DNA of 64,000 nucleotides from an uncultured Candidatus Saccharibacteria bacterium (lineage in GTDB: Bacteria; Patescibacteriota; Doudnabacteria; UBA920): NCBI GenBank assembly GCA_964490395.1, contig CAZBAS010000002.1:127291-191290 (forward strand), in the 5' to 3' direction. The position numbers and the translations under genes were made by a program. Below the pieces are notes generated by a model, which saw nothing but the letters and a program-made list of their open reading frames with translations, ran no database searches and had not been told where the DNA came from. Shown piece by piece: positions 1-63,915 of the stretch. Positions within the stretch are counted from its first letter, which is position 1. Each line of letters begins with the position of its first letter.

Positions 1-643
1 AGTTCTCAGAAGAGAACACTGTAATTACAGCCCCTTGTTTAATATCTTTTTTCATTGCACTCGTTAGCACAGGGTCTTTTGAATTTGTGTGGCAAATAAT
101 TACATCAAAATCACCAATATGTTCAAGATTCGCTTGTTCCAGCTTTACACCGAGATCATTTGCAGCCTTAGCGAAAGCGTCTACCTGGCCCGTGCGATTA
201 ATATATGAAACGATATGCAAATCTGAATAGTATGCTTTAAGTGCAGCCAGATCGCGCTGAGCAATATTTCCTGTTCCTATGTACAGAACCTTTTTAGAGT
301 TAATTTCTTTTACACCTAGCCCATCCAAAACCACAGCAGTCATAACCCCGGTACGCTGGCGCATGTAAGGCGTAAACTCCGTGGTCATGACTATTTCCCC
401 TGACCGGAATATCACCGCATGATCCGAACTCTTGCGGGTTATTACGTCATACGGACTAAACGTATGGTAGAATATCGGCGGATTTTCACCATCCAATTCA
501 AACATGGTCAAGCTAAAGAAGTCGCCAACATATTCACCCTCTTTTTTAAATGCTGGTACGTGCTTATCAAGTTGATATTTATCACCGGCAAGATACACTT
601 GCCGGATGTTCGCACCCAATTCTTTATAGTCTAATTCGTTCAT
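1..643 (-). CDS. Ornithine cyclodeaminase/mu-crystallin family protein. Partial: start codon at 643, C-terminus runs off the window edge.
   Basis: Minus-strand ORF from ATG at 643 to the window edge. Has an OCD-family RTG(V/A)..A motif (RQRTGVMTAVVLDG) followed by the Rossmann GTGNIAQ motif. Not in the ORF track because it is truncated. Confidence 0.4.
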   Translation of the reverse strand, partial: MNELDYKELGANIRQVYLAGDKYQLDKHVPAFKKEGEYVGDFFSLTMFELDGENPPIFYHTFSPYDVITRKSSDHAVIFRSGEIVMTTEFTPYMRQRTGVMTAVVLDGLGVKEINSKKVLYIGTGNIAQRDLAALKAYYSDLHIVSYINRTGQVDAFAKAANDLGVKLEQANLEHIGDFDVIICHTNSKDPVLTSAMKKDIKQGAVITVFSSEN

Positions 644-706
644 ATATTTGATTAATACTTATTTCATTATAGCCATAGTCAGTAAAGTTTTATTGCGAAA
701 TACATA

Positions 707-1048
707 CTACACCCCCTTTGAAACTAAATATTTTTTAGCGACTTCTAGGGCGTCGGTGTGAGCTGCTTCTAAGTTTATTTTGTAGATGTCGGCAATGCGG
801 ATAATGATGAGTAGTATATCACTAAGCTCGTCCGCTATTTTCTCCTGAGTAACTGCGTACTGCGGCTGATCAGCATCTCTGTCTTTAGGGTAATACTGCT
901 CCTGCATCATAATAAGTGCAGACAGCTGGCCCACTTGCTTGGACAACTCTATCATAGCACCGTTTATGCCCCACGGCTTCCCCTCTATCTTCTCAAACCG
1001 CTGTATAACTTGTTTTGTTTGTTCTATAACTTCTTGAAACGTGTCCAT
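707..1048 (-). CDS. MazG-like nucleotide pyrophosphohydrolase domain protein. Start taken at the ATG at 1048; the track's TTG at 1081 lies inside a palindromic repeat.
   Basis: All-alpha ~113 aa protein with an acidic EExxE/D-type motif (IADELSDIL), typical of the MazG/HisE NTP-PPase fold. Confidence 0.5.
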   Translation of the reverse strand: MDTFQEVIEQTKQVIQRFEKIEGKPWGINGAMIELSKQVGQLSALIMMQEQYYPKDRDADQPQYAVTQEKIADELSDILLIIIRIADIYKINLEAAHTDALEVAKKYLVSKGV

Positions 1049-1070
1049 ATGGCATTTATCAAAAATTCTA

Positions 1071-1130
1071 CTGCGTTGCAATGGTCATCTTTGCGACGGT
1101 TGCAAAGATGACCATTGCAACGGGAATTAC
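1071..1130. repeat. Palindromic repeat family A, copy 1: CTGCGTTGCAATGGTCATCTTTGC-GACGGTT-GCAAAGATGACCATTGCAACGGGAATTAC.
   Basis: Perfect 20-bp arms at 1075-1094 and 1102-1121 with a 7-nt loop. Same flanks as the copy at 3038-3097. Confidence 0.85.
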
Positions 1131-1215
1131 TATATTTCGTATCTGATAATTTTAATTCATTTACAGCGTCAAAAATATCACCCTTGTAGCTGTCACAAGG
1201 CTGGCATCGTTAAAT

Positions 1216-2415
1216 TTATTCGCGCTCCAAAGCTTGTCCCCTATTCATTCGTTTCAACATATACATAGTGGCATTGGCAATCTGGTCTTCTCTAAAATAG
1301 TGCACTCCATGCACTCCATTATGTTGCGCTTTTAGAACCCTAACGCCGTTTGCATTATGGAATACTTCCTGCATCATTTTCTCTTCACGTTTTTGCTGTG
1401 ACCACAGAGACTGATCATGCGCAATTTCTGGCACAAATTTATCTGCATTAAAAGCAGCATCTTTTTCCCCCACTACAAGTACCACAGGCACCTCTAGCTC
1501 GCGAGCATGTTCATTTACTTTTGCAGCCTCTTTTGATTCACGCACCGTACGCTTAGCTAATTGCCCCCTCACCGCTTCTTTGGCCATATTATAAGCAACG
1601 CTTGCGCCTAACTTTGATGAAGCAGCAACGCCCTGCTTGTACTTGGTAGGATTTTTTACAGCCTGACTTACAACTTCTAGGGTGGTAGCACCTAAAGAAT
1701 CTTTGAAGAAATTCTTTGTAAGCTCCTTTTCATCTTGCTCAATTATACCGCCAGGGCTGGTGAGAACAAGGCCCTCAATCTCAATCTGCGTGGCGCCCTC
1801 TACTTTGTTTGCTTCTTGAATGAGCCAGGCTAGATCAATGCCCTTATTCGCGCCCTGCGAGTTACCAACAATAGTTATTTTCTTTAAACCTTGTTCAGTT
1901 ATAAATTTTAGTATTGCTTGTGCCTGTATTTCTTGGGAATTTTCAGTGGTCGGACTACCTAACCTGGTAGATATGGTATATGTTTTTGCCTGACTGGCAT
2001 TTGCAAAATGAGTACCCGATTCCACCACCGGACCAGAATCCCCCTCCAAAGCTACACCAGGTAAAAATATAACCGCTTCGTCTTCTCCAGCTTGTGCCAC
2101 ATAGTCCTCTGGACCTGCCACAAAAGGCTCGCGACGAGGCAACACATCTCCATCATTTACCACCCCCATATCCTGAAGTTTTTCCGAGAGTTCTACTTCC
2201 GAAGTGTCTAACAATTCAGGATTTTTATTTACATCACTCCGCAAACGTTTCTGTGTAGGACGAGACACTTGCCACACCAGCTCCACTTTATCCCCTTCAT
2301 TGGTCGGGTATTCTATACGGCCGCCGTCTGGCATTCGTTGCTCTTTTTTATTCTCCTGATCTTCCGGATGCCAATTGGCCATGGATTCTAGCGAGTTGTA
2401 TTCACCTTCAAGCAT
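1216..2415 (-). CDS. Alpha/beta-hydrolase fold protein with a GNSQG nucleophile elbow. N-terminal extension in the track rejected.
   Basis: GxSxG motif (IVGNSQGANKG). ORF-track residues 1-29 translate the family-A palindrome (VAKMTIATQ), so the start is taken at MLEGEY (ATG at 2415). Confidence 0.55.
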   Translation of the reverse strand: MLEGEYNSLESMANWHPEDQENKKEQRMPDGGRIEYPTNEGDKVELVWQVSRPTQKRLRSDVNKNPELLDTSEVELSEKLQDMGVVNDGDVLPRREPFVAGPEDYVAQAGEDEAVIFLPGVALEGDSGPVVESGTHFANASQAKTYTISTRLGSPTTENSQEIQAQAILKFITEQGLKKITIVGNSQGANKGIDLAWLIQEANKVEGATQIEIEGLVLTSPGGIIEQDEKELTKNFFKDSLGATTLEVVSQAVKNPTKYKQGVAASSKLGASVAYNMAKEAVRGQLAKRTVRESKEAAKVNEHARELEVPVVLVVGEKDAAFNADKFVPEIAHDQSLWSQQKREEKMMQEVFHNANGVRVLKAQHNGVHGVHYFREDQIANATMYMLKRMNRGQALERE

Positions 2416-2440
2416 AATATTTAGTAATATTTTAATTTGC

Positions 2441-2469
2441 GTTGCAATGGTCATCTTTGCAACGGTTAC
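2441..2469. repeat. Family A solo arm (GTTGCAATGGTCATCTTTGCAACGGTTAC), lacking the partner arm.
   Basis: Identical to the left arm and loop of the copies at 1075 and 3042. Confidence 0.6.
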
Positions 2470-2470
2470 A

Positions 2471-3032
2471 TTACATATCAAACACTCTAAATTCGTACTC
2501 ACGCAAGGTCACGAGCTCCAAATCGGGATGAATATTTGCCAATCCACTATCAACTTCTCCCGCATAGTGGCACATAAGACGAATGGGCAAAATACCCAAA
2601 CCTTCTAGCAATCCATTCCGTATGCTATGAAAGGCCGCAGCCAAAGGATTTGCTCCAGCAGAATCACCAGCAATAATCTTTCCTTGGAATGCCGATTTAA
2701 GATCTGGGAACTTTTTTAAGGTTTCAATGCTCTTACTGCTACTCCCCCCATGCAAATAGACCACATCGGCCCACGCAATTTGCGAAAGAAAATTCTGTTC
2801 TTCCGCAATTTGAAACGTTAAAGACTTAGCGCCTTTATTTTTATTGAATTGATCCATGTCTTCTGCGCTATTCTTGGGAATGCGATCCAGTTCTTTTGCG
2901 AAATACACAAGCAAAACTTTAGCATTGTCTGGCGCAGTAGATAGCACTTCGGCAAAAAAAGTATCGTCTTCCTGGGCGCTACCCGGAGTAAACCCGCCAT
3001 GTAAAATATATTTCGTGTTCATCATTTTAATT
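2471..3032 (-). CDS. Peptidase S51 / class-I glutamine-amidotransferase-like protein (dipeptidase E-like).
   Basis: Nucleophile-elbow motif IIAGDSAGA and an overall PepE/cyanophycinase-like layout. Start taken at MNTKYILHGGF (ATG at 3032) because the upstream extension translates the family-A palindrome. Confidence 0.5.
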
Positions 3033-3037
3033 AATTG

Positions 3038-3097
3038 CTGCGTTGCAATGGTCATCTTTGTAACCGTCGCAAAGATGACCATTGCAACGGGAATTAC
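3038..3097. repeat. Palindromic repeat family A, copy 3, with an inverted loop.
   Basis: Arms GTTGCAATGGTCATCTTTG / CAAAGATGACCATTGCAAC. Loop TAACCGTC is the reverse complement of copy 1's loop GACGGTT. Conserved flanks CTGCG...GGGAATTAC. Confidence 0.85.
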
Positions 3098-3621
3098 TTC
3101 ATTAATAGTGCGAGCTTGCGGACGGTATTTACGTTGCGGGCCGTCATGTTTTTGTAGAGAGGTGTGCCAATGAATTTCCGTACCCCGCTTTTTGTATGAA
3201 ATTTTCTCGTTATTCTCCAAATGATAGCGCCGTCTGTGTATTTGAGCTTATCGGCTTCGGGGTGTGGGGTAATTAAACCTAAAGAACTCTTTTTACTATA
3301 CTCGTCCCACAGAAAGAGCACATCTGTTTTTACTTCTGTATTGTTGTCCCACCCCGCAGGAATGGCTTTAACTACTTTAGCAATGCTTGCACTATCGCGC
3401 AGCACCACACCAATAGCAAACCCAAACCTCTTTTTAACCACCTGTTCTATATCCCCCGCCTTCGGTGCGGTTTTACTTTCAAAAATAACATTACCAGAAT
3501 TTATGTAAGTAGAAACATTTCCATACCCAAGTTTCTCAAACACCTGTTTGAGCCTTTTCATTTCCACTTTATTATTCCCACCCACATTTATTCCGCGCAA
3601 CAGCGCTACGTATTTTTTCAT
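3094..3621 (-). CDS. DUF1697 family protein.
   Basis: N-terminus MKKYVALLRGINVGGNNKV is the signature start of DUF1697 proteins. Confidence 0.6.
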   Translation of the reverse strand: MKKYVALLRGINVGGNNKVEMKRLKQVFEKLGYGNVSTYINSGNVIFESKTAPKAGDIEQVVKKRFGFAIGVVLRDSASIAKVVKAIPAGWDNNTEVKTDVLFLWDEYSKKSSLGLITPHPEADKLKYTDGAIIWRITRKFHTKSGVRKFIGTPLYKNMTARNVNTVRKLALLMK

Positions 3622-3668
3622 TCCAAACTCTTTATTGCTAGGACAGCACGCATAAAATTATGCCGTAT

Positions 3669-4028
3669 CTATATTTCTAACGCCAGCTCCCATTGCATAG
3701 GTATCAGCATAATATTAACCACATCGGCAATCCCCTGAGCAGCCTTATATTCCGAAACCTTCTTGGATATTAAATCTAACATCTTGTGTGCATCGTTCTC
3801 CGGTATAGCATCTCGACTAATTCGAATATACACCTCCATTGGCGCAGGGTTCAAAGCAAATTCGTATTTTCGAGCACTTAACGGAGAATCCTCTAGTGTC
3901 TCATCAGCGGCTTCAGCAGTTGCTTGTTGGATAACTGCGCACATGTTACTTAGCTTCTCTTCTGAGAAAAACTTCTGATCGTACTCAACAGAAATAACAG
4001 GCATATAATAAGTATTAATTCTTAGCAA
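3669..4028 (-). CDS. Hypothetical protein, possibly tautomerase-like if it starts at internal MPVISVEY (ATG at 4004).
   Basis: ORF only. The N-terminal Pro after the internal Met suggests, but does not prove, a tautomerase-superfamily protein. Confidence 0.3.
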   Translation of the reverse strand: MLRINTYYMPVISVEYDQKFFSEEKLSNMCAVIQQATAEAADETLEDSPLSARKYEFALNPAPMEVYIRISRDAIPENDAHKMLDLISKKVSEYKAAQGIADVVNIMLIPMQWELALEI

Positions 4029-4030
4029 AA

Positions 4031-4384
4031 CTAACTCAGCGCCGTCGAAGCAATAACCTTAATTTCTACTTTTGCGTTGCGAGGCAAGTCTTTCACCCCT
4101 ACGCAAATACGAGCAGGAAAAGGTTCGGCAAATAACTCTCTATACACGTCATTCATGGGCGCGTAGTCTTCCTCAAAAGAAGTTAGAAATACTTCCGAAG
4201 AAACTACATTCGCTAGGCTTAAACCAACCCCTTCTAAAATGCCAGCAATGTTTTGAATGGTTTGTTTAGTCTCGGCTTCTATGCCGCCCTCTATTAACTC
4301 CCCATCCTTCATGCCTATCTGCCCGGACACGAATACTAAATCCCCTGCTTTTCTATATGTACTCAATGGAAATGTTGTTGGCAT
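4031..4384 (-). CDS. ridA: RidA/YjgF family reactive-intermediate deaminase.
   Basis: 117 aa with the typical RidA sequence (GDLVFVSGQIG...ARICVGV..LP..A.VEI). Confidence 0.75.
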   Translation of the reverse strand: MPTTFPLSTYRKAGDLVFVSGQIGMKDGELIEGGIEAETKQTIQNIAGILEGVGLSLANVVSSEVFLTSFEEDYAPMNDVYRELFAEPFPARICVGVKDLPRNAKVEIKVIASTALS

Positions 4385-4402
4385 AAAATTTAAATAAGAA
4401 AA

Positions 4403-5146
4403 TTATTTTAAGGTATATCCGCCGTCAATAAAAATATTTTGACCTGTTATATTTTTTGCTGTATCTGAAGCAAGAAATACTATCATGCGCGCTATCTCTT
4501 CAGGTTCTGCAAGCTTGCCTAGCGGAGTCTTGGCTAGCGTTTCGGTGGTTTCTTCTTCGGGTGCTGCCACCCAATATCCTGCGCGCACCGCAGCGGGTGA
4601 TATAGCGTTTGCTCGGCCAAAGGGAGCCAATAATTTAGCATAGGCCTGGGTAATGTTAACTATTGCTGCTTTGGCAGCTGCGTAAGATAGAACATCGTCT
4701 TTACCTCCCGCTGAATAACGAGAGCTAACATTCACCATAACTCCGGACCGCTGTTCTTGAAATTGTTGCACAGCGTACTTAGAGATACTCATAACAGATA
4801 CTAAATTCTGCTTAAGCGATTCTACCCACACTTCCACCTCACCATCCCATTCATCTCCAGCAATATAACCCCCTGCATTATTCACAACCACGTCAAGCTT
4901 TCCGTACTTACTAACCGCAGCTCCTACTAATGCCGCGGCTTGCGCATCGTCACATAAATCAGCTTGATACGCAACAGCTTCGGCACCTACGTCTTTGACG
5001 TGAGCAACTACTTCTTCGGCTCCCTTACTATTGTCTTTATAGCTAATCGCCACATGAGCCCCCTGCTTACCAAATTCTATTGCAGTAGCTGCGCCAATCC
5101 CGCTGGAACCTCCAGTTATTAATACGACCTTATTTTTAAATTCCAT
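4403..5146 (-). CDS. SDR family oxidoreductase (FabG-like).
   Basis: TGGSSGIGAATA Rossmann motif, NNAG motif and a YxxxK catalytic dyad region. Confidence 0.8.
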   Translation of the reverse strand: MEFKNKVVLITGGSSGIGAATAIEFGKQGAHVAISYKDNSKGAEEVVAHVKDVGAEAVAYQADLCDDAQAAALVGAAVSKYGKLDVVVNNAGGYIAGDEWDGEVEVWVESLKQNLVSVMSISKYAVQQFQEQRSGVMVNVSSRYSAGGKDDVLSYAAAKAAIVNITQAYAKLLAPFGRANAISPAAVRAGYWVAAPEEETTETLAKTPLGKLAEPEEIARMIVFLASDTAKNITGQNIFIDGGYTLK

Positions 5147-12337: not shown

Positions 12338-12608
12338 GTAAAGACACCCAGGCAAACGCACGCAATCCAAATTATTTACCTATCATGCTTGCGTAAGCCG
12401 TCCCGCATTTCGTTGGGGGACTGACGCTCAGCCTGATAGACTGCATTTCTGGATTCCGGCTCACGCAAAGCCTTGGCCGGAATGACATACGTGTAGACAA
12501 ATTCCAATTTTAGCATTCATGCCACGCAATGCGCTGCAGACAAGTATAGATTTCGCGAAAGAACAATTTGCACTATACTAATACTAAATAGCTAAATTAT
12601 CATTCTAT

Positions 12609-18117: not shown

Positions 18118-18798
18118 ATGAAAAAGCTGGCTACTGTATTACTCGTCATACTTATACTACTTGGCGCACTCACCAGTATTTTTGCATTGGGCGCAAGCGG
18201 TGACGAACACAACTGGTTCAATACAACGTGGAGACCTCGCTTTGCGCGCGTGGCGAGCCTACGGAGTCTATTCAATCTCCACGATGATGGCGATGCCAAA
18301 AGCGAATATCTGGGCAAGCAAAAACAATACATTGCCATTATAATAAAACCATATGTTGACCCGTGGTTTAGCGATGGTGTGTGGAAAGAGTTTAGCAAAA
18401 AAGTAACCGAAATTACGGGCAAACAAGTAGAGCTTCTCACAGATACAGATATACCCACGTCTAATGACGCACCTGTATACATATACCTTGAAAGCGTTAA
18501 CGAAGAAAATGCACTCACCCTAGGAAAAACATATAATGAGAATGGCATTATTTTGTACAAGCAGGGTTTGGAAAGCTTCAGTAACGGTACTCCGGAAACA
18601 AAAGAAGCCTACATTATGTCTACGCTCCTTCATGAGTTCGGCCATCAGCTAGGCCTAGTCCACAACGAAGAACCCGGCTGCCTCATGAACAGCCATGCCG
18701 AAACCGGCGGCAATGCCAAGCTCGTGACCAGCGAAGTGATAACAAACTTCTGCGCGGAGGAGATTGAACAAATTTCAAAAATCAAAAGTGAATTATGA
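18118..18798 (+). CDS. Secreted metzincin-type zinc metalloprotease.
   Basis: Signal peptide. HEFGHQLGLVH matches the HExxHxxGxxH zinc-binding consensus, with a downstream CLM Met-turn candidate. Confidence 0.6.
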   Translation: MKKLATVLLVILILLGALTSIFALGASGDEHNWFNTTWRPRFARVASLRSLFNLHDDGDAKSEYLGKQKQYIAIIIKPYVDPWFSDGVWKEFSKKVTEITGKQVELLTDTDIPTSNDAPVYIYLESVNEENALTLGKTYNENGIILYKQGLESFSNGTPETKEAYIMSTLLHEFGHQLGLVHNEEPGCLMNSHAETGGNAKLVTSEVITNFCAEEIEQISKIKSEL

Positions 18799-18880
18799 AG
18801 TAAGAATTATGAAGTATGTATTTAAGAACTCTTAAGGCATTTCTACTACGTAATTCATAATTCCTTATTCATAATTCCGC
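18788..18880. repeat. Word-palindrome, family 5 (GAATTATGAAG arms), overlapping the 3' end of the metzincin gene.
   Basis: GTGAATTATGAAGTAAGAATTATGAAGTATG ... CGTAATTCATAATTCCTTATTCATAATTCC. Confidence 0.7.
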
Positions 18881-19118: not shown

Positions 19119-19128
19119 TTCATTTAAA

Positions 19129-19233
19129 CATGTAAGCATGCAAACATTTAAACATTTAAACAGTTAAACAATAACACGGGCGTTGCCCGTGTTATTGTGT
19201 TTACCTTTGTTTATATGTTTGCATGCTTACATG
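19129..19233. terminator. Bidirectional terminator hairpin at 19170-19196 (AATAACACGGGC-GTT-GCCCGTGTTATT), enclosed by a perfect 18-bp inverted repeat.
   Basis: Enclosing IR is CATGTAAGCATGCAAACA (19129-19146) / TGTTTGCATGCTTACATG (19216-19233). Lies between convergent genes. Confidence 0.7.
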
Positions 19234-19248
19234 TTTATATGCGACCTA

Positions 19249-20991: not shown

Positions 20992-21012
20992 AGAATAGTA
21001 TCAAAAATATAA

Positions 21013-21098
21013 TTGACCAAGATTGAGCAAGAATGAACAAGATTACCTACACAATCTTGGTCAATTTTGTACAATCATGGTCAATCTTGGTCAATTCA
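21013..21098. repeat. Array of a 13-bp motif TTGACCAAGATTG in direct and inverted orientation, between ftsL and ftsI.
   Basis: Forward copy at 21013-21025. Reverse-orientation copies CAATCTTGGTCAA at 21052-21064, CAATCATGGTCAA at 21074-21086, and CAATCTTGGTCAATT at 21085-21098, plus degenerate copies. Confidence 0.7.
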
Positions 21099-23178: not shown

Positions 23179-23282
23179 AGACAGGAATGTAGAATTAAGA
23201 ATTTTGAATGTAGAATAAATGCATTTTAATTCAGCATTCGCTACTCTACACTCTACGTTTGTGGGGTCTTGTTAAGTTATGC

Positions 23283-23959: not shown

Positions 23960-24030
23960 GGATCGAAGACGAGAATGACGAATTATGAATTAAGAATTAA
24001 GAATTAAGAAGCAGAAAGCATAACAAGAAT

Positions 24031-24077
24031 GGCAGAAGGGCATCTTCTGCAGCTGCTGCAGAAGATGCCCTTCTGCC
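24031..24077. repeat. Perfect 47-bp GC-containing palindrome GGCAGAAGGGCATCTTCTGCAGC-T-GCTGCAGAAGATGCCCTTCTGCC.
   Basis: 23-bp arms with no mismatches, between the TrmH start and the stop of the 166-aa gene. Preceded by direct GAATTA(TG/AG)AAT repeats (23947-24010). Confidence 0.85.
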
Positions 24078-27225: not shown

Positions 27226-27309
27226 GGTAATGTCTAATTTCTAATATTCAATTTCTAATGAGCCGGACTGTCTTCCATTAGACATTAGGAATTAGAAATT
27301 AGACATTTC
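27226..27309. repeat. Word-palindrome, family 2 (AATGTCTAATTTCTAAT ... CATTAGACATTAGGAATTAGAAATTAGACATTTC), copy 1.
   Basis: About 80-90% identical to the copies at 28686 and 30411. GCCGGAC-type loop. Confidence 0.8.
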
Positions 27310-28667: not shown

Positions 28668-28685
28668 AAGGTGAGGAAATGTCTA

Positions 28686-28776
28686 ATTTCTAATACCTAA
28701 TTCCTAATGGTCCGGACATTCTTATATCTTTCATTAGACATTAGAAATTAGATATTGGTCATTTCCTACATAGTAT
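28686..28776. repeat. Word-palindrome, family 2, copy 2 (loop CTAATGGTCCGGACATTCTT).
   Basis: About 90% identical to the copy at 30411-30500. Confidence 0.8.
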
Positions 28777-30410: not shown

Positions 30411-30500
30411 CAATGTCTAATTTCTAATATCTAATTCCTAATGGTCCGGACATTCTTTTGTCTTTCATTAGACATTAGGAATTAGAAATTGGACATTTCT
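30411..30500. repeat. Word-palindrome, family 2, copy 3.
   Basis: AATGTCTAATTTCTAATATCTAATTCCTAATGGTCCGGACATTCTTTTGTCTTTCATTAGACATTAGGAATTAGAAATTGGACATTTC. Confidence 0.8.
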
Positions 30501-31249: not shown

Positions 31250-32278
31250 TTACTTAATACTGAGTATGCTTCGCTTATAACTATCTAAGTTATCCAAGGC
31301 AACTCCAGTCCCCTTTGCAACGCACAAAAGCGGGTCTTCTGCCACAAAACACGGCACACCAATGGCCTGCGCTATGTAACGGTCAAGGTTTCGCAGCTGC
31401 GCTGTACCACCAGTCATAACCATACCTTTGTCTATAATGTCGGCAATAAGCTCTGGAGGTGTATCTTGCAATACCGTTTTAATGGCACGGACCATTTCTT
31501 GCAAGTCTTCGGTGAGTGCATCTACAATTTCATTCGCGCCCACAGTCGTAGTGCGAGGAAGACCGGTAATAATGTCTCGTCCTTTTGTCTCCATTACTTC
31601 CTCTTGAGGAAGGTGTACTGCACTGCCAATAGTAATTTTTATTTCTTCAGCTGTGCGCTCGCCAATGGCAAGACCATGTTTTTTCCGTACATAGTCGGCA
31701 ATGCTCTGGTCAAGCCTATTCCCGGCAACACGGACTGAGGTAGAAGTAACAATACCACCAAGTGAAAGTACGGCAACATCGGTAGTACCGCCACCAATAT
31801 CTATAACTAAGTTTCCTGCAGCGCTACCAATAGGAATACCAGCACCAATAGCTGCAGCAACAGTTTCTTTTATAACAAAGGCTTGGCGCGCACCTGCACT
31901 ACGTGCAGCATCGAGCACTGCGCGACGTTCTGTAGAGGTCACACCCCCGGGCACGCTAATCATTACTTCTGGTCTCAGCAACCTAAACCCAGTAAGCGCT
32001 TTGTTTATAAAATAGCGAAGCATGGCTTCTGTGACGCGATAATCTGCAATAACGCCATCGCGCATGGGCCTGCGTGCCACAATAGTTTCAGGCGTACGGC
32101 CAAGCATATCCTTTGCTTCTTGCCCTACTGCAAGTACACGATTATCATCCAAAGTAATGGCAACAACCGTAGGTTCGTTTATAACAATCCCCCGCTGCGG
32201 CAAAAAAACCAGCGTGTTCGCCGTTCCTAAATCTATACCAATTTTATTAGAAAACCATTGAGACATGAGAAAATGCAA
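31250..32278 (-). CDS. mreB: Rod-shape-determining protein MreB.
   Basis: Actin-fold motifs IGIDLGTANT and DIGGGTTD. 342 aa. Confidence 0.9.
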   Translation of the reverse strand: MHFLMSQWFSNKIGIDLGTANTLVFLPQRGIVINEPTVVAITLDDNRVLAVGQEAKDMLGRTPETIVARRPMRDGVIADYRVTEAMLRYFINKALTGFRLLRPEVMISVPGGVTSTERRAVLDAARSAGARQAFVIKETVAAAIGAGIPIGSAAGNLVIDIGGGTTDVAVLSLGGIVTSTSVRVAGNRLDQSIADYVRKKHGLAIGERTAEEIKITIGSAVHLPQEEVMETKGRDIITGLPRTTTVGANEIVDALTEDLQEMVRAIKTVLQDTPPELIADIIDKGMVMTGGTAQLRNLDRYIAQAIGVPCFVAEDPLLCVAKGTGVALDNLDSYKRSILSIK

Positions 32279-32287
32279 AATTTAGAA

Positions 32288-32495
32288 TGCAGAATTATGA
32301 ATTATGAATCAAAATTGCCAATAGCTTGAAAATTCCCCAAAAATAAGTAGGGCCTTGCTTAATTCATGATTCTTGCTTCATGATTCTATCCTAGTATACC
32401 AAACGCGGGCACATTGTAATAGCCCCATAAAAACGCTATAATATAAGGACTTTCATGCATAATTCTGCATTCTTCATTCTAAATTCTGCATTTAT
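32288..32495. repeat. Word-palindrome, family 5 (TAGAATGCAGAATTATGAATTATGAATC ... GCATAATTCTGCATTCTTCATTCTAAATTCTGCAT).
   Basis: Inverted arms at 32288-32330 and 32455-32495. The ~130-bp central region contains AGTATACCA (32393-32401) and TATAAT (32436-32441) and is the divergent promoter region for mreB and the 32496 gene. Confidence 0.7.
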
Positions 32496-33797: not shown

Positions 33798-33838
33798 AAC
33801 AATGGGCACCCCGATATTACATCGGGGTGCCCATTGTT
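33798..33838. terminator. Bidirectional terminator hairpin AACAATGGGCACCCCGAT-ATTAC-ATCGGGGTGCCCATTGTT.
   Basis: 18-bp perfect stem between convergent genes. Outer stem is shared with the hairpin at 9057. Confidence 0.7.
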
Positions 33839-33852
33839 GATAACATTACATA

Positions 33853-34266
33853 CTAGCCTCGCGCATCCAAAGCCTTGTTTACCTGCGCGTCCGCTTCCTT
33901 GTTGTACTCACGGCGCACATGTGTAAATACCACACTCGCAAAATTACCTTTCAGCCGAATAACTTTTTGAGCTAACTCTTGGAGGGTGGGCTCTTTTATT
34001 TTATATAGGCCCTGCATTTGCTTTACTATGAGCTCGCTGTCCATGCGCACTAGGAGATCTGTGGCGCCCATATCACGGGCAGTTTCTAGGGATTTAATGA
34101 GCGCGCTGTATTCTGCCACATTATTTGTCGTTTCTCCAATATACGCGCCATGTTCAAAAATAATATTCTCTTGTTCATCGCGAATAATAACTCCAATCCC
34201 TGCAGCACCGGGGTTACCTCTACTTCCTCCGTCCGTATTTATGATAAGTTTTTTCATTGTAAGCAA
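33853..34266 (-). CDS. rnhA: Ribonuclease HI.
   Basis: INTDGGSRGNPGAAGIGVII and DEDD-type catalytic residues. 137 aa. Confidence 0.8.
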   Translation of the reverse strand: MLTMKKLIINTDGGSRGNPGAAGIGVIIRDEQENIIFEHGAYIGETTNNVAEYSALIKSLETARDMGATDLLVRMDSELIVKQMQGLYKIKEPTLQELAQKVIRLKGNFASVVFTHVRREYNKEADAQVNKALDARG

Positions 34267-34724
34267 GCTTGTTAGCTAGTTAGCTGTTTAGCTAATTAGG
34301 GAAAATTACGTCTTTAAGTTTCCTACCATGGTATTCAACATGCGCATTACTTCACCCAATAAGCCATCCACAGTAGTATAATCCAATTCTTTACCAAAAG
34401 GTAACCTCTTTACTAATTCTATCTGGGTTTCCAGCTCGGCACCCGACCCATAGGCAATAGTCAAAAAACGAGACAACTCGGCCTTTGAAGTCCGCCGGCG
34501 CCCTTCAGCGATATTGCTCGGAATAGATACCGCACACCTTCTACTCTGAGATACTAGACCATAAAGCTCTTCCTTAGGGTAGAATCCGGTTAAAACGTAG
34601 ACAGCCACCGCAAGGTCCATAGATTCTTGCCAGACAATTAGGTCTTTATAACTATGAATTTGTTCATTCATAATGTTTTTCCTAACAAGCTAAACAGCTA
34701 ACTAGCTAAACGGCTAAGAAGCTT
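34267..34724. mobile_element. IVS-like unit: a four-helix-bundle protein gene enclosed by a ~30-bp inverted repeat of family 3 (AGCTAA words).
   Basis: Left arm AAGCTTGTTAGCTAGTTAGCTGTTTAGCTAATT at 34267-34297. Right arm CTAACAAGCTAAACAGCTAACTAGCTAAACGGCTAAGAAGCTT at 34683-34724. They share the 22-mer AGCTAAACAGCTAACTAGCTAA in inverted orientation. Confidence 0.6.
34306..34671 (-). CDS. Four-helix-bundle protein (TIGR02436; 23S rRNA intervening-sequence protein family).
   Basis: Block YGL.SQ.RR.AVSIPSNIAEG..R.S..E..RFL.IA.GS..ELETQ is characteristic of the family. 121 aa. Confidence 0.7.
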   Translation of the reverse strand: MNEQIHSYKDLIVWQESMDLAVAVYVLTGFYPKEELYGLVSQSRRCAVSIPSNIAEGRRRTSKAELSRFLTIAYGSGAELETQIELVKRLPFGKELDYTTVDGLLGEVMRMLNTMVGNLKT

Positions 34725-36438
34725 TTATATCTACCACTCTGAGCTTCAGTTTGCGGACACCCTTCCAGGAGTCAGCAAGTAATTCTGCAGCAACATCTAC
34801 TGTGGCGCCAACATCCAGCACCTGGAGCAGATGCGGCTGACTAAAAGCAATGCCTTGCACTTGAGCGCCATCAATATCAAAACCTAACTGCACATGCTTG
34901 CTTTCCGCCCCTACACCCCGCAGCGTAGTTACCGTAGCATTTTTTATCCAAAACAGTGGCTTAGGGTTGCCTGCTCCAAACGGCGCCAGCTCTTCAAGCG
35001 TATCAAAAAAATCTAGAGTCAAGTTGCGCGGCATTAGCTCTGCATCAAGTTCGAGTACTACTTCACTCGTGCCCTCTTTGGCAATTATTTCTTCTGCATA
35101 GCGGGCTAGTTCTCTTCTAAAATTTTCAAGATCTTTTGTTTTGAGAGTGAGGCCGGCAGCTTCTTTGTGACCACCAAATTTGGTTAAATATTTGCTTGCG
35201 GCTTTCAGTGCCTCTACCACATTAAAATTCCCGTAGGTACGCGCGGAACCTGTGCACTCTTCGTCACCCTGCTCCAGTACTATAACTGGTTTACCAAACT
35301 CGCCTGAGAGCCTGCCTGCAGCAATACCCACAACTCCTTTGGGCCAATCTTTACCAGCCAGCACCAATATTTTCTGCTGCGCCTGAAACGCTGCTTGCTC
35401 ACGCGCCTCAGAAATGAGCCGCGCTGTTACATCTTGTCTTTTAAGATTGATTCGCTCCAGAACTTTTGCTGCCTGGTCTGCCACCATAGTATCTTTTGCA
35501 ACTAGTGTATCAAGTGCAATGTTGGCGTGTTCTAGTCTTCCTGCGGCGTTTATACGAGGCGCGAGTCCAAAACCTAAGGTATGAGTATCTAAACTGGATG
35601 CATTCTCCCCTTGTACATTTGCAAGCAGACTTCTGAGTCCCGGCCACTTTGTTTTTGCCAGAACCATAAGTCCATATTTTACGAATATACGGTTTTCTCC
35701 AAGGAGGCTGTGACAATCGGCAACCGTCCCAATAGCTACTAGATCCAAAAGCCACTTATCCCAGTGTTCCTGGTATTCTTCTTCTGGTATGGCTTTTAAC
35801 TTGACGACGTTCGACTTCTGACCCAAAAGTGCTCTTGCAAATTTATACGCCACCCCCACCCCGGTAATTTGCGGGTCTGGGTACCTATCTGCAGGATTTT
35901 TTGGATTGATGAGAGCGAAACTTTTAGGAGTCTCAGCGGTTATCTCGTGGTGGTCGGTTATGATAAGATCGATTTCGTTCTGAGCGCACCAGTCAGCCAC
36001 ATCGCAGGAGTTTGTACCACAGTCCACCGTTATAACCAGCTTTGCGCCATCAGCTTTTATTTTTTCAAATGCCTCTATGTTTAACCCGTACCCTTCGGTA
36101 AAACGATCGGGCACATAGCTTCCTACTTCAACCCCAAGGTATCTAAAGGTTTGCTGCAATACCGCATTGGCTGTAATGGCATCGGCATCGTAGTCACTGT
36201 ATATAACAATGCGCTCGCCTTTTTCTATGGCCTGCCACATTCTGTCCACAGCCTTCCGCATATCCTGAAAAAGGAAGGAGTCGAACTGCCCGTCATAGGT
36301 TGGATGCAAAAATTGCTGTACATGTTCTGCCGAAACCCCTCGCTGTGCAAGCAGACTCGCCAACACAGGAGGAATATCACCGTAGCCAGTAAGTGCGTCA
36401 GAAGTAGGAGTATCTTTTAATTTCCACTGTTTAGGCAT
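34714..36438 (-). CDS. recJ: Single-stranded-DNA-specific exonuclease RecJ.
   Basis: DHH motifs (DYDADAITA, ITDHH), DHHA1 domain and C-terminal OB-like domain. 574 aa. Confidence 0.85.
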   Translation of the reverse strand: MPKQWKLKDTPTSDALTGYGDIPPVLASLLAQRGVSAEHVQQFLHPTYDGQFDSFLFQDMRKAVDRMWQAIEKGERIVIYSDYDADAITANAVLQQTFRYLGVEVGSYVPDRFTEGYGLNIEAFEKIKADGAKLVITVDCGTNSCDVADWCAQNEIDLIITDHHEITAETPKSFALINPKNPADRYPDPQITGVGVAYKFARALLGQKSNVVKLKAIPEEEYQEHWDKWLLDLVAIGTVADCHSLLGENRIFVKYGLMVLAKTKWPGLRSLLANVQGENASSLDTHTLGFGLAPRINAAGRLEHANIALDTLVAKDTMVADQAAKVLERINLKRQDVTARLISEAREQAAFQAQQKILVLAGKDWPKGVVGIAAGRLSGEFGKPVIVLEQGDEECTGSARTYGNFNVVEALKAASKYLTKFGGHKEAAGLTLKTKDLENFRRELARYAEEIIAKEGTSEVVLELDAELMPRNLTLDFFDTLEELAPFGAGNPKPLFWIKNATVTTLRGVGAESKHVQLGFDIDGAQVQGIAFSQPHLLQVLDVGATVDVAAELLADSWKGVRKLKLRVVDIKAS

Positions 36439-36561
36439 ACAAAATACTTTATCCTGATATACAGATACTATACGAATCTACAGATACCTACGGATAAATG
36501 CCAAAGATGAGGATCAGTAGGTATCTGTAGATTCGTATAAATTCGTAGACCTGGATTATGT
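36439..36561. repeat. Word-palindrome singleton (CGAATCTACAGATACCTAC ... GTAGGTATCTGTAGATTCG).
   Basis: Near-perfect 19-bp inverted core with flanking TACAGATAC/TACGAAT words. Confidence 0.75.
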
Positions 36562-38163
36562 TTAGTTAAGTGCTGCAAGTAAGCTCACGGCAGTCATTTC
36601 AGGTGGCTTTTCCAGACCAAACAGTTCCAAAATAGTAGGGGCTACGTCGCTGACTGCGCCCTCGGGGACCACACCAGCAAGTGACAAATAGTTGGGTCGC
36701 TCGTCACGGATTTTGCGGAACTCGTTTGCGATGAGGATAAATGGTACTGGGTTTGTGGTGTGGTCTTTGTCTATCTCTCCTGTTTTGAGGTTTATAAGCT
36801 GTTCTATGTTACCATGGTCAGCGGTAATAATAAGCGCCGCATCTGCCTGCAGGGCTGCCTCAGCAATTCTCCCCACAGAAGCATCAAGTGAGCTTACCGC
36901 AAGTTTGCTCGCTTCAAGGTTCCCCGTATGGCCCACCATGTCGCCATTGGCATAGTTTGCCAATATAAAATTGGTGTCGCTTTTCGTAATTCTTTCTACG
37001 AGCACATCGGTAAGCACCGGAGCGGACATTTCTGGCTGGTCTGAGTAGTTATTGCTATTTGAGGGGCTGCTTACTATTTTTCGTTCCTCTCCTGGTAATA
37101 AGTCTGTTCTTCCGCAATTGAAAAACGCGGTTACGTGAGCATACTTTTCCGTTTCGGCTGCATGGAATTGCGTGTAGTTCTGTACAGACAGAAACTCTGC
37201 AAGGTTTCCCGCAAGCTCCTGGGACGCAAATGCTACTTGCACGGGCAAACCCTGCCTATACTCGGTCATGGCAGCAAAGTACATGTTCTGTAGCGGAGTA
37301 ATTTTACCAGCCAGCGGCGTTAGTGCGGTTTCCACAAAAGCCTGAGTGAGTTGCAAAGCCCGGTCTTGTCTGAAGTTAAAGAAAATAATGCCGTCACCAT
37401 CGCGCATAGTCGCTACGGGGCCGCCCGTCTCCCGCACTATAACCGTAGGCGGTACCATTTCATCGAACACGCTCCGATCGTAGTTAAATTGTACGGCCGC
37501 TTCTGCAGAAGGAGCTGTTGGACCAGCACCTTCCACCATGGCTCGGTAGGTTGTTTCGGTTTGCTCCCAGTGGCCACCGCGGTCCATAGCATAAAACCTA
37601 CCAGAAACTGTTGCAATTTCCCCTACACCTATTTCGCCTATCTTTTCCCGCAGCCGCGCAATATCTGAAAGAGCAACTTTTTCCGGAGTGTCTCTGCCGT
37701 CTAAAAATAGATGCACATATACGCGCTGCAGCCCCTGCATTTGAGCCAGTGCCAGAAGCGCGAATAAGTGATCTATGGAGCCGTGCACGCCGCCGCCACT
37801 CCCAAGACCCATTATGTGCAAAGAAGAATTATTTCGTTTTACGTGCTCACACGCACCCACAAGTGCTGAGTTCTTATAAAACTCACCAGTACCAATGGAG
37901 TTGTTTATGCGAGGCAAGTCCTGTGCCACAATTCTCCCTGCGCCAATATTTAAGTGCCCCACTTCGGAATTTCCCATTTCTCCCCATGGCAAACCAACCA
38001 GCGGACCCGAAGCCTGCAGTGTAGTGGATGGATATGCGTTCACCAGCTCATCTAAGTGAGGAGTACCGGCTAAGGAGATAGCATTACCCCTTGAGGGCGA
38101 TGCTACTCCAAAGCCATCCAGTACTATAAGCACTACTTTTTTGTATAATTTTGGTTTAAGCAT
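36562..38163 (-). CDS. gpmI: 2,3-bisphosphoglycerate-independent phosphoglycerate mutase.
   Basis: N-terminus VVLIVLDGFG. Ser-phosphatase and metal motifs. 533 aa. Confidence 0.9.
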   Translation of the reverse strand: MLKPKLYKKVVLIVLDGFGVASPSRGNAISLAGTPHLDELVNAYPSTTLQASGPLVGLPWGEMGNSEVGHLNIGAGRIVAQDLPRINNSIGTGEFYKNSALVGACEHVKRNNSSLHIMGLGSGGGVHGSIDHLFALLALAQMQGLQRVYVHLFLDGRDTPEKVALSDIARLREKIGEIGVGEIATVSGRFYAMDRGGHWEQTETTYRAMVEGAGPTAPSAEAAVQFNYDRSVFDEMVPPTVIVRETGGPVATMRDGDGIIFFNFRQDRALQLTQAFVETALTPLAGKITPLQNMYFAAMTEYRQGLPVQVAFASQELAGNLAEFLSVQNYTQFHAAETEKYAHVTAFFNCGRTDLLPGEERKIVSSPSNSNNYSDQPEMSAPVLTDVLVERITKSDTNFILANYANGDMVGHTGNLEASKLAVSSLDASVGRIAEAALQADAALIITADHGNIEQLINLKTGEIDKDHTTNPVPFILIANEFRKIRDERPNYLSLAGVVPEGAVSDVAPTILELFGLEKPPEMTAVSLLAALN

Positions 38164-38167
38164 GTAA

Positions 38168-38256
38168 GAGCTTGTTAGCTGATTAGCTAGTTAGCTTTTT
38201 AGAAAAACGTTATGGCTTTCGCTAACCAGCTAAAAAGCTAACTAGCTAAAAAGCTG
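38168..38256. repeat. Word-palindrome, family 3 (GAGCTTGTTAGCTGATTAGCTAGTTAGCTTTTTAG ... CTAACCAGCTAAAAAGCTAACTAGCTAAAAAGCTGCTC).
   Basis: Inverted AGCTAA-word arms around a 19-nt loop. Confidence 0.75.
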
Positions 38257-43426: not shown

Positions 43427-43514
43427 AGCTTTTTAGCTTTTTAGCTACTTAGCTTTTTAGCAAGTCAGAAATTATTCCTAACAAGCTAAGTAGCTAACTA
43501 GCTACAAGCTAGGT
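43427..43514. repeat. Word-palindrome, family 3 (AGCTTTTTAGCTTTTTAGCTACTTAGCTTTTTAGCAAG ... CTAACAAGCTAAGTAGCTAACTAGCTACAAGCTAG).
   Basis: Inverted AGCTAA-word arms around the loop TCAGAAATTATTC. Confidence 0.75.
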
Positions 43515-47954: not shown

Positions 47955-48338
47955 AGATTAATTGACAAAAATGACAAAAATTAAAAAAGTGACAAAATTA
48001 CTTAAGGCGCTGATTTTTAATAGTAGAATTTTTGGATGCAATCATAATAGCAGTTAATTCGCCAGATTCTTGTAGCAATTCTTTTAGAAGTTCATTTTTA
48101 ACCAAACCCGAATCGGACAGTAGTTCTAACCAAAGCTGTGTTTCATCACACTCTTCAATTTCGGTACCCATTTTTGAGATAAAATCTTTTCTCGATTTAC
48201 ACCTACACGCAGCTCTGTAGTTAGCGTCATGATTGTACCCAAACGAATGAGTTGGCTATTTGCAAGAATTTTTACCTGTCCGCCATAGCCTTGCGGCGGA
48301 TCATTTTTATTTATTTTTGTTCACTTTTGTCATTACCG
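47955..48338. repeat. Word-palindrome singleton flanking a 384-bp region that holds a truncated four-helix-bundle ORF.
   Basis: Arms ATTGACAAAAATGACAAAAATTAAAAAAGTGACAAAATTA (47957-47996) vs ATTTTTATTTATTTTTGTTCACTTTTGTCATTACC (48301-48335). Confidence 0.65.
48002..48171 (-). pseudogene. Fragment matching the C-terminal half of a four-helix-bundle (IVS-type) protein; truncated gene or remnant.
   Basis: 56-aa ORF MGTEIEECDETQLWLELLSDSGLVKNELLKELLQESGELTAIMIASKNSTIKNQRLK. It matches the conserved C-terminal E..W.....G....E....L......KML..L..S block. No N-terminal half is present. Confidence 0.35.
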
Positions 48339-50996: not shown

Positions 50997-50998
50997 GG

Positions 50999-51082
50999 TA
51001 GCTTTTTAGCTTTTTAGCTTTTTAGCTTTTTAGCTTTAGGGCGTTACCTAGAAAGCTAAGAAGCTACAAGCTAACAAGCTAT
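50999..51082. repeat. Word-palindrome, family 3 (four tandem AGCTTTTT words, then CTAGAAAGCTAAGAAGCTACAAGCTAACAAGCT).
   Basis: Inverted AGCTAA-word arms around the loop GCGTTA. Confidence 0.75.
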
Positions 51083-52273: not shown

Positions 52274-52281
52274 AAGATATA

Positions 52282-52372
52282 GAGCTTCTTAGCTGGTTAG
52301 CTTTTTAGCTTTTTAGAAATTAGAGTGGACCCCTAATTAGCTAACAAGCTAATCAGCTAACTAGCTTTTTAG
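52282..52372. repeat. Word-palindrome, family 3; both ends carry AGCTTTTTAGAAATT.
   Basis: AGCTTCTTAGCTGGTTAGCTTTTTAGCTTTTTAGAAATTAG ... CTAATTAGCTAACAAGCTAATCAGCTAACTAGCTTTTTAGAAATT. Confidence 0.75.
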
Positions 52373-53347: not shown

Positions 53348-53431
53348 GATAAGTAAATAGAAAACAGTAATCAGAAAGCAGAGAATAAGAAAAGGGGTAA
53401 CCAGCTTAAGAATGATAATGCGACCTGGTTG

Positions 53432-53824: not shown

Positions 53825-53908
53825 AATTAGTTCATAAAGTTTGTAAAGTTCATAAAGTTTGTAAAGTATTTACTTTATAAACTTTCTACTTTATGAACTT
53901 GATAGCTT
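53825..53908. repeat. Word-palindrome singleton (CATAAAGTTTGTAAAG x2 ... CTTTATAAACTTTCTACTTTATGAAC).
   Basis: Direct 16-mer duplication followed by its imperfect reverse complement. Confidence 0.7.
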
Positions 53909-57888: not shown

Positions 57889-57902
57889 AGAAATATAATA
57901 AA

Positions 57903-57991
57903 ATGCCTAATGTCTAATTCTTAATTTCTAATGCGAAGCCTAAAAACATTTGACTCTTGCATTAGAAATTGGATATTAGAAATTAGACATT
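57903..57991. repeat. Word-palindrome, family 2, copy 5.
   Basis: TGCCTAATGTCTAATTCTTAATTTCTAATG...CATTAGAAATTGGATATTAGAAATTAGACATTC. Confidence 0.75.
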
Positions 57992-58646: not shown

Positions 58647-58734
58647 ATCTTTTTGTTTATGTTTCTAATCTTATGAAACTTAAGAATAGTATATCATAGC
58701 CTCGCGCAATTGCAAACACAAAAGGATCAGAATC

Positions 58735-58815
58735 AAGAATTACGAATTATGAATTAAGTAAACGCCGTCCAACCCGTCGCCACTGTTAGGAGCATAATTC
58801 ATAATTCTTGATTCA
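58735..58815. repeat. Word-palindrome, family 5 (GAATCAAGAATTACGAATTATGAATTAAG ... CATAATTCATAATTCTTGATTCATAATTC).
   Basis: Inverted GAATTATGAAT-word arms. Confidence 0.75.
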
Positions 58816-63826: not shown

Positions 63827-63915
63827 TGAAATTTCTAATTTCTAATTTCTAATTTCTAATGAGGTATCTAATCATGAGCTTACTAATTAGATATTAGAAA
63901 TTAGATATTGGGCAT
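63827..63915. repeat. Word-palindrome, family 2, copy 6 (four tandem TTTCTAAT words ... TTAGATATTAGAAATTAGATATTGGGCATTC).
   Basis: Inverted TCTAAT-word arms between rpsE and rplO. Confidence 0.75.

Follow-up and report, generated by a model that had tools for sequence, protein, structure and literature searches.

Small proteins of the PF05635/TIGR02436 four-helix-bundle (4HB) family are among the commonest small bacterial proteins of unassigned function, and the origin of the intervening sequences (IVSs) that carry such open reading frames (ORFs) in rRNA has been an open question since the early 1990s. Here, we describe a 4HB gene enclosed by inverted tandem-repeat arms that lies between the protein genes recJ and rnhA in a 64,000-nucleotide stretch of DNA, referred to as the window. 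The closest named homologues of its RecJ come from Candidatus Doudnabacteria (Patescibacteria, or candidate phyla radiation [CPR]).

A precedent for this arrangement is the 23S rRNA IVS of Coxiella burnetii, an element of 428 to 444 nt that contains an S23p ORF, is closed by a terminal stem of 28 bp and can be cut in vitro by RNase III; its sporadic distribution suggests horizontal spread, and its ORF has been reported as decaying (PMC4990558). Insertions in CPR rRNA sometimes carry a 4HB ORF as well (PMC11270868). Intergenic heptamer arrays, namely the short tandemly repeated repetitive (STRR) sequences of cyanobacteria, the GGGAATC arrays of Xanthomonas and the TAACTGA arrays of Beggiatoaceae, lie near start codons, have no explained function and are often paired in a convergent, inverted arrangement (PMC4692102, PMC4679880). 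In the searchable literature, rRNA IVSs, heptamer arrays and Avd, a 4HB protein of diversity-generating retroelements, are described separately, and the repeat-arm rule set out below is found nowhere there. No report in that literature joins the 4HB family with tandem-repeat arms; the curators' notes to TIGR02436 and TIGR04256 might mention flanking repeats.

The 4HB cassette between recJ and rnhA

The minus-strand ORF of 121 aa (34306-34671) encodes a full-length TIGR02436/PF05635 4HB protein. In profile searches it matched TIGR02436 over positions 1-109 of 109 (E value, 1.3e-32; 112.3 bits, cutoff 24) and PF05635 over positions 1-105 of 106 (E value, 6.3e-34; 116.8 bits, cutoff 33.8), scores far above the cutoffs that bear out the family membership proposed in the initial annotation. 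The RxxxSxxxNxxE motif described for the family (PMC3936711) is found in the translation as RRCAVSIPSNIAEG. The nearest solved structure is XCC0516 (PDB 2GSC; E value, 4.5e-23), 2RLD was matched as well (E value, 3.3e-5), and the two entries contain five chains apiece. The placement of the gene between rnhA and recJ also stood, RecJ and RNase H having been confirmed by Pfam calls on syntenic loci. The cassette spans window positions 34266-34723, about 458 bp, and consists of the following parts.

34676-34723, minus strand: 5' (upstream) arm, five TTAGCTNN-type units
34306-34671, minus strand: intact 4HB gene, PF05635/TIGR02436, 121 aa, under purifying selection
34266-34305, minus strand: 3' (downstream) arm, the complement of the 5' arm, made of TTTTCCC and NNAGCTAA units

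The inverted repeat (IR) around the gene comprises arms of 34 nt (34272-34305 and 34676-34709) that are 91% complementary, with 370 nt between them. Its IR score of 26.5 exceeds every one of 1000 shuffles (maximum, 11.5), and the 22-mer by which the initial annotation had recognized a flanking inverted repeat is exact on both strands, with 10 window matches at ≤3 mismatches and 0 expected. The repeat described there is thus real; what was overlooked is its tandem build with a periodic core. The units of both arms repeat in tandem with a period of 8, in 4.2 and 3.8 copies. The sense-strand TAGs of the 5' arm lie at 34682, 34690, 34698, 34706 and 34714, the outermost of these (34714-34716) being the stop codon of recJ, and the innermost 5'-arm unit merges into the Shine-Dalgarno sequence of the 4HB gene, AGGA (34680-34683). 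On the other side, the 3' arm stops 8 nt short of the rnhA ATG (34257). Each flank of the cassette carries a single arm and no complete hairpin. Tandem arms with a conserved periodic core argue for sequence-specific recognition, beyond base pairing alone.

The terminal inverted repeat is predicted to fold into a long enclosing stem, as in IVSs, and the arms have the build of short tandem arrays, that is, intergenic units of 7 to 9 nt in few copies. The cassette is flanked by recJ and rnhA and not by the helices of a 16S or 23S rRNA, and an Rfam scan of the window returned one tRNA and no rRNA. Because it is not located in rRNA, we read it as an IVS-type hairpin cassette residing in operons, not as an IVS sensu stricto. 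It resembles the ORF-bearing 23S IVSs of Leptospira and Coxiella in the protein family encoded in the loop and in a terminal stem of about 28 to 34 bp, and at 458 nt it is similar in size to the Coxiella element. In contrast to these IVSs, it lies between the protein genes of an operon and has arms in which 8-nt units sharing a conserved TAG core are repeated in tandem; furthermore, its ORF is under purifying selection, whereas that of Coxiella is decaying.

Flanking arrays across the 4HB family and a second cargo

The flanks of 4HB genes were surveyed with one genome per species, which gave 80 loci (L006-L085; statistics on 76 or 77 of them) from CPR, Bacteroidota, Acidobacteriota, Clostridia, Actinobacteriota, Gammaproteobacteria, Planctomycetota and others. 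For each gene, an ungapped IR score was computed from 90 nt of upstream and 90 nt of downstream flank, with neighbouring genes as controls.

IR score ≥12: 36/76 4HB genes, 11/341 neighbouring genes
IR score ≥15: 23/76 4HB genes, 6/341 neighbouring genes (Fisher P value, 9e-14)
IR score ≥20: 11/76 4HB genes, 3/341 neighbouring genes

Inverted tandem arrays of 7- to 8-nt units flank 4HB genes far more often than neighbouring genes in many phyla. Of the upstream 4HB flanks, 31% reached a periodicity of at least 0.75, as did 27% of the downstream ones, versus 2.7% of controls; the dominant period was 7, and the arm unit varied by genome (AGTTGTTGA, AGTTCAC, TAGGCAAT, AGTGGTT, TTAGCGG, etc.). The most enriched trinucleotide was TAG upstream (3.1-fold) and CTA downstream (2.9-fold) of the 4HB genes. 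Upstream chains of at least three TAGs at a spacing of 6 to 10 nt preceded 29 of 77 4HB genes versus 0 of 223 controls (P value, 7e-20); their modal length was five, and their spacing mostly 7 to 8 nt. The median gap between a 4HB gene and its neighbours was 51 nt on both sides, and the upstream gene was co-directional in 84% of cases versus a background of 74% (P value, 0.03). Conserved rRNA motifs were sought in 85 loci (80 of them species representative), none of which lay in an rRNA gene. The same arms were present in several of 17 4HB copies from viral contigs.

The flanking arrays are linked to the gene they enclose. Arm k-mers are absent elsewhere within 3 kb in most genomes, which indicates that the arms belong to the 4HB gene. 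Among pairs of loci with a common arm 6-mer, the median protein identity was 0.61, versus 0.48 for other pairs (Mann-Whitney P value, 6e-21, with pairs that are not independent of one another). The 4HB protein of a pilin operon (L093) is 74% identical to that of the window and its gene has five TTAGCTNN units. In a sugar-nucleotide operon (L096, positions 268-4576, and L097), four 4HB cassettes are present and nearly every intercistronic gap is occupied; three paralogues with 77 to 93% mutual identity have arms of TTAGCGG heptamers, and the fourth, with an identity of 52 to 56% to this group and 68% to the 4HB protein of the window, has TTAGCTNN arms as in the window. Arm type thus follows the 4HB subfamily across hosts and contexts, and arms and ORF make up a linked unit found again in further genomes and other operons.

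These results bear on a simple explanation that takes the palindromes for ordinary intercistronic hairpins of the host, with an unrelated small gene between two half-sites by chance, or the arrays for functionless results of replication slippage. Since hairpins occupy almost every gap of the window, a gene could fall between arms by chance, and tandem 7- to 8-mers are prone to slippage. We nevertheless consider this highly improbable: it is already contradicted by the family-wide survey of inverted repeats, the tracking of arm type with protein and the upstream TAG chains. The same arrangement surrounds 4HB genes in many phyla and is missing from their neighbours, and each cassette flank has a single arm in place of a whole hairpin. 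As described below, the ancestral junction had no intergenic space and the hairpin families have conserved loops, which also speaks against a chance origin.

The architecture of inverted tandem arrays is shared by genes for GxxExxY proteins of the PD-(D/E)XK type (TIGR04256; E value, 1.6e-29), which constitute a second cargo at the following loci.

L005, 558-1019: GxxExxY cassette
L003, 1-460: GxxExxY cassette
L090, 342-593: GxxExxY cassette
L068, 1060-1600: GxxExxY cassette

The GxxExxY gene precedes iPGM in the first three of these and lies near a 4HB gene in L068. The iPGM-side junction occupied by GxxExxY in the relatives is the junction at which the window has a gene-less hairpin (38169-38255). 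In L005, the arms consist of TACGAANN units with the outer ends CCCTACGAA and TTCGTAGGG, and in L068 they are perfect inverted GAGACGC heptamers; TTAGTANN is also found among the arrays bracketing GxxExxY genes. A scan of viral contigs with the GxxExxY protein gave no match. Like the STRR and other heptamer arrays, the cassette arms are intergenic tandem arrays of short units near start codons, arranged as inverted pairs. They differ in that they bracket defined cargo and that arm type follows cargo phylogeny, and the papers on the heptamer arrays give no link to PF05635 or GxxExxY (PMC4692102, PMC4679880).

From the conservation of the periodic TAG core it would seem that some sequence-specific factor reads the arms as well; conserved core, free spacers and co-variation of arm and protein together point to recognition of the individual unit. 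Either a recombination factor or the 4HB pentamer could do the recognizing. In the latter case, the pentamer would bind five UAG units, one per subunit, and control its own translation or processing, possibly that of gene-less hairpins too, a simple proposal for what an Avd-like pentamer might bind, with (UUAGCUNN)5 as a model RNA. The analogy is to TRAP, a ring-shaped oligomer that binds (G/U)AG triplet repeats with non-conserved spacers next to a ribosome-binding site, just as the cassette combines spaced triplet repeats beside a ribosome-binding site with a ring oligomer. TRAP differs in its unrelated fold and in a spacing of 5 to 6 nt versus 7 to 8 nt in the 4HB arms, where binding is putative. 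We regard this explanation as quite unlikely, given that it is drawn purely from numbers and analogy. In its favour, TAG is the sole conserved part of the unit, at a spacing of 7 to 8 nt and with a modal count of five, the last TAG adjoins the Shine-Dalgarno sequence, the homologues 2GSC and 2RLD each have five chains, and arm type co-varies with protein subfamily. On the other hand, the remainder of the unit varies widely among proteins that are 60 to 70% identical, many hairpin families of the window have no TAG (TAA, TGA or none) in the presence of only one intact 4HB gene, and an arm of about 35 nt may instead reflect a minimum length of helix or homology.

A protein with a homologous pentameric 4HB fold, the positively charged barrel of Avd, has a defined Avd-binding RNA element (bioRxiv 10.1101/2023.10.23.563531), which lends the idea further support, and PF22296 (bAvd) matches are recorded for many close 4HB homologues. 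Unlike Avd, the cassette has neither a reverse transcriptase nor a template/variable repeat pair nearby: a crude scan found no window ORF of at least 200 aa with YxDD, and the neighbours are housekeeping genes.

Insertion at one junction and proposed excision from the transcript

Protein look-ups followed to syntenic loci placed a 4HB gene between recJ and rnhA in L001/L002, L003/L004, L005, L089 and L090 as well as in the window. Loci without the cassette were also found: in L087, recJ and rnhA overlap by ATGA, in L088 a 42-nt gap holds a small unrelated hairpin, and in the outgroups L091 and L092 the two genes overlap by 8 and 23 nt. A RecJ scan of metagenomes returned one distant match only, and the empty sites came from protein homologues and contig look-ups. 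These comparisons indicate that the ancestral recJ/rnhA junction was an overlap with zero intergenic space, into which the cassette was inserted.

The host tree detracts from this picture, since its deep nodes are unresolved (bootstrap, 18 to 46; the clade of the window, L003 and L089 has 89%) and it cannot by itself separate one insertion with loss from repeated insertion. The case for several lineages therefore rests on the identities of the 4HB proteins. Between the window and L089, 4HB identity is 62% and RecJ identity 78%; for L090 the values are 54% and 72%, and for L001 79% and 72%. Better 4HB matches lie in unrelated contigs, P0110 for L089 (71%) and P0025 for L090 (64%). Judged from these identities, at least three 4HB lineages have occupied the junction, by repeated insertion or cassette replacement. 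The arms at all recJ/rnhA loci with a 4HB gene are AGCT-based 8-mers. With empty sites and several lineages at one junction, the mobility put forward in the initial annotation holds in a broad sense.

The 4HB gene has a dN/dS of 0.088 where dS can be estimated, and between the window and L003 dN is 0.07 with synonymous sites saturated. The low ratio indicates that the protein is functional and under purifying selection. The arms are retained between the window and L003 despite this saturation, a divergence that would have erased neutral sequence. At the outer junctions, a reading of the filled window site against the empty L087 site revealed no direct repeat of the target-site-duplication type. 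As a further instance of turnover in this region, L003 has a HicA/HicB-type toxin-antitoxin pair (PF07927, PF21748) at 2102-2564, between iPGM and recJ.

In the window, the gene order is recJ, 4HB, rnhA, all on the minus strand, and the gaps of about 40 nt are occupied by the arms. A coding-strand scan between the three genes found no promoter-like site. Their sole intrinsic terminator follows rnhA and marks the end of the transcription unit, outside the cassette.

33798-33838, minus strand: intrinsic terminator, GC-rich stem then T run, 3' of rnhA

The sense RNA of 34255-34735 folds with -147.1 kcal/mol (z = -4.0), and a closing stem of about 28 bp is present in both the minimum-free-energy and the centroid fold. 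We read this as a discrete cassette with no promoter of its own and propose that it would be transcribed by read-through from the host operon. The arms would then pair in the transcript into a stem of about 28 to 34 bp, which would shut in the ORF together with some of its Shine-Dalgarno sequence, and this stem would be a substrate of RNase III, as in the 23S IVSs of the same size and architecture that have been studied by experiment, so that the cassette would be excised from the host RNA. Excision of this kind would make insertion tolerable in operons and rRNA alike. To this scheme of read-through, arm pairing and excision as a route to tolerance we assign about an even chance of being correct. 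The excision step is held with moderate confidence and by analogy: the Coxiella IVS is cut by RNase III in vitro, and cleavage of the cassette is predicted. Our confidence in any account of how the cassette moves is low. Several genes, iPGM and rnhA among them, start 5 to 8 nt past the end of a hairpin arm (38163-38169 and 34257-34266) and have no recognizable Shine-Dalgarno sequence; if the stems were cleaved, their mRNAs would be nearly leaderless.

Several observations count against this scheme. Among 262 mismatched arm positions from 60 loci, sense G-U pairs (58) equal antisense wobble pairs (58), the remaining 146 being non-wobble, and the mismatches thus give no sign that a helix of sense RNA has been under selection. 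In L001, the variable NN positions are mostly non-complementary between the arms, and a plain stem could do without tandem repeats and without a conserved TAG core. Among the species-representative loci, a significant inverted repeat is retained by only about half of the intact 4HB genes, so the stem is not needed everywhere for expression of the protein. No RNase III gene was found in the window, and no RNase III signature in the loci. Finally, some cassettes may bring their own promoter. In the viral-contig cassettes L101, L103, L106 and L108, the spacer between 5' arm and ORF contains TATCTTTG about 30 to 45 nt before the start, which we take to resemble the Bacteroidota -7 promoter motif TAnnTTTG, and L111 and L112 have TTGACA at the corresponding position. 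A role of the 5' arm in particular as the source of stops in all frames was dropped as a polarity rule, the window arms being equal in this respect (63 versus 59 stop triplets).

A number of these findings would suit an element that acts at the level of DNA, with the arrays as the ends of a mobile or mobilizable cassette and RNA pairing as incidental. The arrays could be sets of several short binding sites for a recombinase or nuclease acting in trans, or portable homology by which loops are copied between arrays of the same family. Empty sites exist, three 4HB lineages share one junction, all with AGCT-type arms, arm type travels with the ORF, and one operon holds four cassettes. The core hexamer is conserved and the NN positions drift without compensation, wobble mismatches show no strand bias, and a good inverted repeat in about half of the intact genes is what would be expected if the ends matter at insertion only. 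The GxxExxY PD-(D/E)XK protein, a second cargo of the same architecture, could supply the nuclease. Against this, no transposase, integrase or nuclease lies in or adjoins the cassette, the window junctions have no target-site duplication, and the arms kept between the window and L003 despite dS saturation speak for continuing selection or homogenization and not for a one-off scar. We treat a DNA-level role of the arms as possible, if somewhat doubtful, and retain the scheme of read-through and excision from RNA as the preferred one.

Gene-less palindromes and a degraded second copy

Nearly all intergenic gaps of the window hold hairpins with tandem arms of 7- to 10-nt units, in several families. 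The family-3 pattern TTAGCTNNTTAGCTNNTTAG, to which the cassette arms belong, has 29 window matches at ≤2 mismatches (0.05 expected), which fall at five sites and always form an inverted pair. Its gene-less palindromes, to which no strand is assigned, are as follows.

38169-38255: family-3 palindrome at the enolase/iPGM junction
43427-43507: family-3 palindrome, inner junction GCTTGTTAGGAATAA matching GCTTGTTAGGAAAAA of the cassette
50998-51081: family-3 palindrome, 4.9 copies of TAGCTTTT
52281-52368: family-3 palindrome, 14-mer CCCTAATTAGCTAA common with the 3' inner junction of the cassette

The cassette minus its ORF is colinear with the four family-3 palindromes placed in an alignment, where the palindrome at 43420 (minus strand) retains GCTTGTTAGGAATAA and the one at 52275 has the 14-mer CCCTAATTAGCTAA. 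The loop at 38203-38229 reads TTAGAAAAACGTTATGGC followed by TTTCGCTAACCAGCTAA, the cassette counterpart being TTAGGAAAAACATTATG...TTTTCCCTAATTAGCTAA; it retains the spacer, the ATG and the 3' inner junction of the cassette without the ORF. By this comparison the family-3 gene-less palindromes are the same element as the cassette, minus the ORF, and retention of spacer and ATG is most simply read as ORF loss, in few examples. The link drawn in the initial annotation between the intergenic palindromes and IVS-type hairpins is in agreement with this colinearity and with the family-wide occurrence of arms around 4HB genes. Its suggestion that most palindromes lost their ORF finds backing in the loop at 38203-38229, with the restriction that, of the palindrome families in the window, only family 3 and the TGACAAAAA family are tied to a 4HB cassette.

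The TGACAAAAA family forms a second palindrome, with arms at 47963-47988 and 48307-48332 (26 nt, 81% complementary). Its IR score was reached by 2 of 1000 shuffles, weaker than that of the cassette and still real. It comprises the following features.

47963-47997, no strand assigned: left arm, TGACAAAAA units, period 9, 3.9 copies
48001-48255, minus strand: 4HB pseudogene, degraded and truncated at its 5' end, covering Pfam positions 44-104 of 106 and containing a 56-aa ORF
48307-48334, no strand assigned: right arm, from the IR search and shuffles

The 56-aa ORF matches TIGR02436 over positions 63-107 of 109 (E value, 9e-6; 25.9 bits, cutoff 24), and the homology continues in frame upstream of its ATG, to PF05635 positions 44-104 of 106 (E value, 1.4e-7). 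Its PF05635 score (32.1 bits) is lower than the cutoff (33.8), it lacks the first 43 positions at the N terminus, and stops lie upstream. The second copy is a 5'-truncated, degraded pseudogene and not a gene. A partial 4HB ORF is thus indeed enclosed by this palindrome, as had been noted, with a homology that extends beyond the frame then described. A tblastn search with the intact 4HB copy gave no match at the second palindrome, and we therefore assign the remnant to a distant 4HB lineage. A different arm family accompanies a different 4HB lineage here, in agreement with the tracking of arm type with subfamily. The TGACAAAAA arm family is also present, without a gene, at the iPGM/recJ junction of L001. 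Inside the loop of the second palindrome, beside the right arm and upstream of the degraded frame, lies a short GC-rich hairpin, CCGCCATAGCCTTGCGGCGG (48281-48300).

The tandem-arm hairpins form a class apart from the window's canonical GC-rich terminators, which are few. Examples lie at 18790-18877, 19121-19241, 21011-21096, 27229-27307, 28674-28767, 30412-30497, 32271-32493, 36469-36539, 53829-53904, 57902-57991, 58730-58814 and 63830-63909, and units of the hairpin families include AATTTCT, GAATTAT, CATTTAAA, ATTGAACAAG, TAAAGTTTG and CACGAAT. The family present at orthologous junctions varies, with TATACGAATCTACAG at iPGM/recJ in the window and TGACAAAAA in L001. Loops of the AATTTCT family (27261-27275, 28710-28731 and 30444-30465, and about 12140-12170 of L001) share a conserved sequence containing GTCCGGAC; such conserved loops indicate that gene-less families are copied units and not products of independent slippage. 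In this family, the 5' arm is built of CTA-type and the 3' arm of TTAG-type units, a polarity opposite to that of the 4HB cassettes.

In being short, multicopy and intergenic, in families with conserved loops, the gene-less copies resemble MITEs (miniature inverted-repeat transposable elements), repetitive extragenic palindromes (REPs) and REPINs, and like these they look like ORF-deleted derivatives of an ORF-bearing parent. They differ in that the cassette arms are built of tandem short repeats and the cargo of the parent is not a transposase. In line with this, there was no target-site duplication, no transposase in the neighbourhood and no RAYT partner identified.

Collectively, these findings suggest a testable model in which the 4HB gene travels as a cassette with its repeat arms, lands in intercistronic junctions and decays to gene-less hairpins, and they make the cassette a candidate source of the pervasive intergenic palindromes in this CPR genome. 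A link to the unexplained heptamer arrays of cyanobacteria, Xanthomonas and Beggiatoaceae is possible. In its widest form, the proposal would be that 4HB genes, and in parallel GxxExxY genes, are carried by hairpin cassettes of a widespread class not described so far, whose roughly five UAG-core repeats are recognized by the pentamer, one per subunit, with rRNA IVSs, gene-less CPR hairpins and some STRR-like arrays as its products or relics; taken in full, we think this unlikely.

Some repeats of the window stand apart from these hairpins. Tandem arrays without an obvious inverted partner nearby lie at 23972-24010, 23185-23216, 12575-12597 and 53359-53393, and an AGAATTA array of 5.6 copies adjoins a perfect GC-rich palindrome at 24031-24077. 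A non-tandem palindrome, CGTTGCAATGGTCATCTTTGCGAC, unrelated to the tandem-repeat hairpins, is present in three copies (1074-1122, 2422-2470 and 3041-3107), two of which are 588 nt apart and lie within or beside ORFs at 2471-3220.

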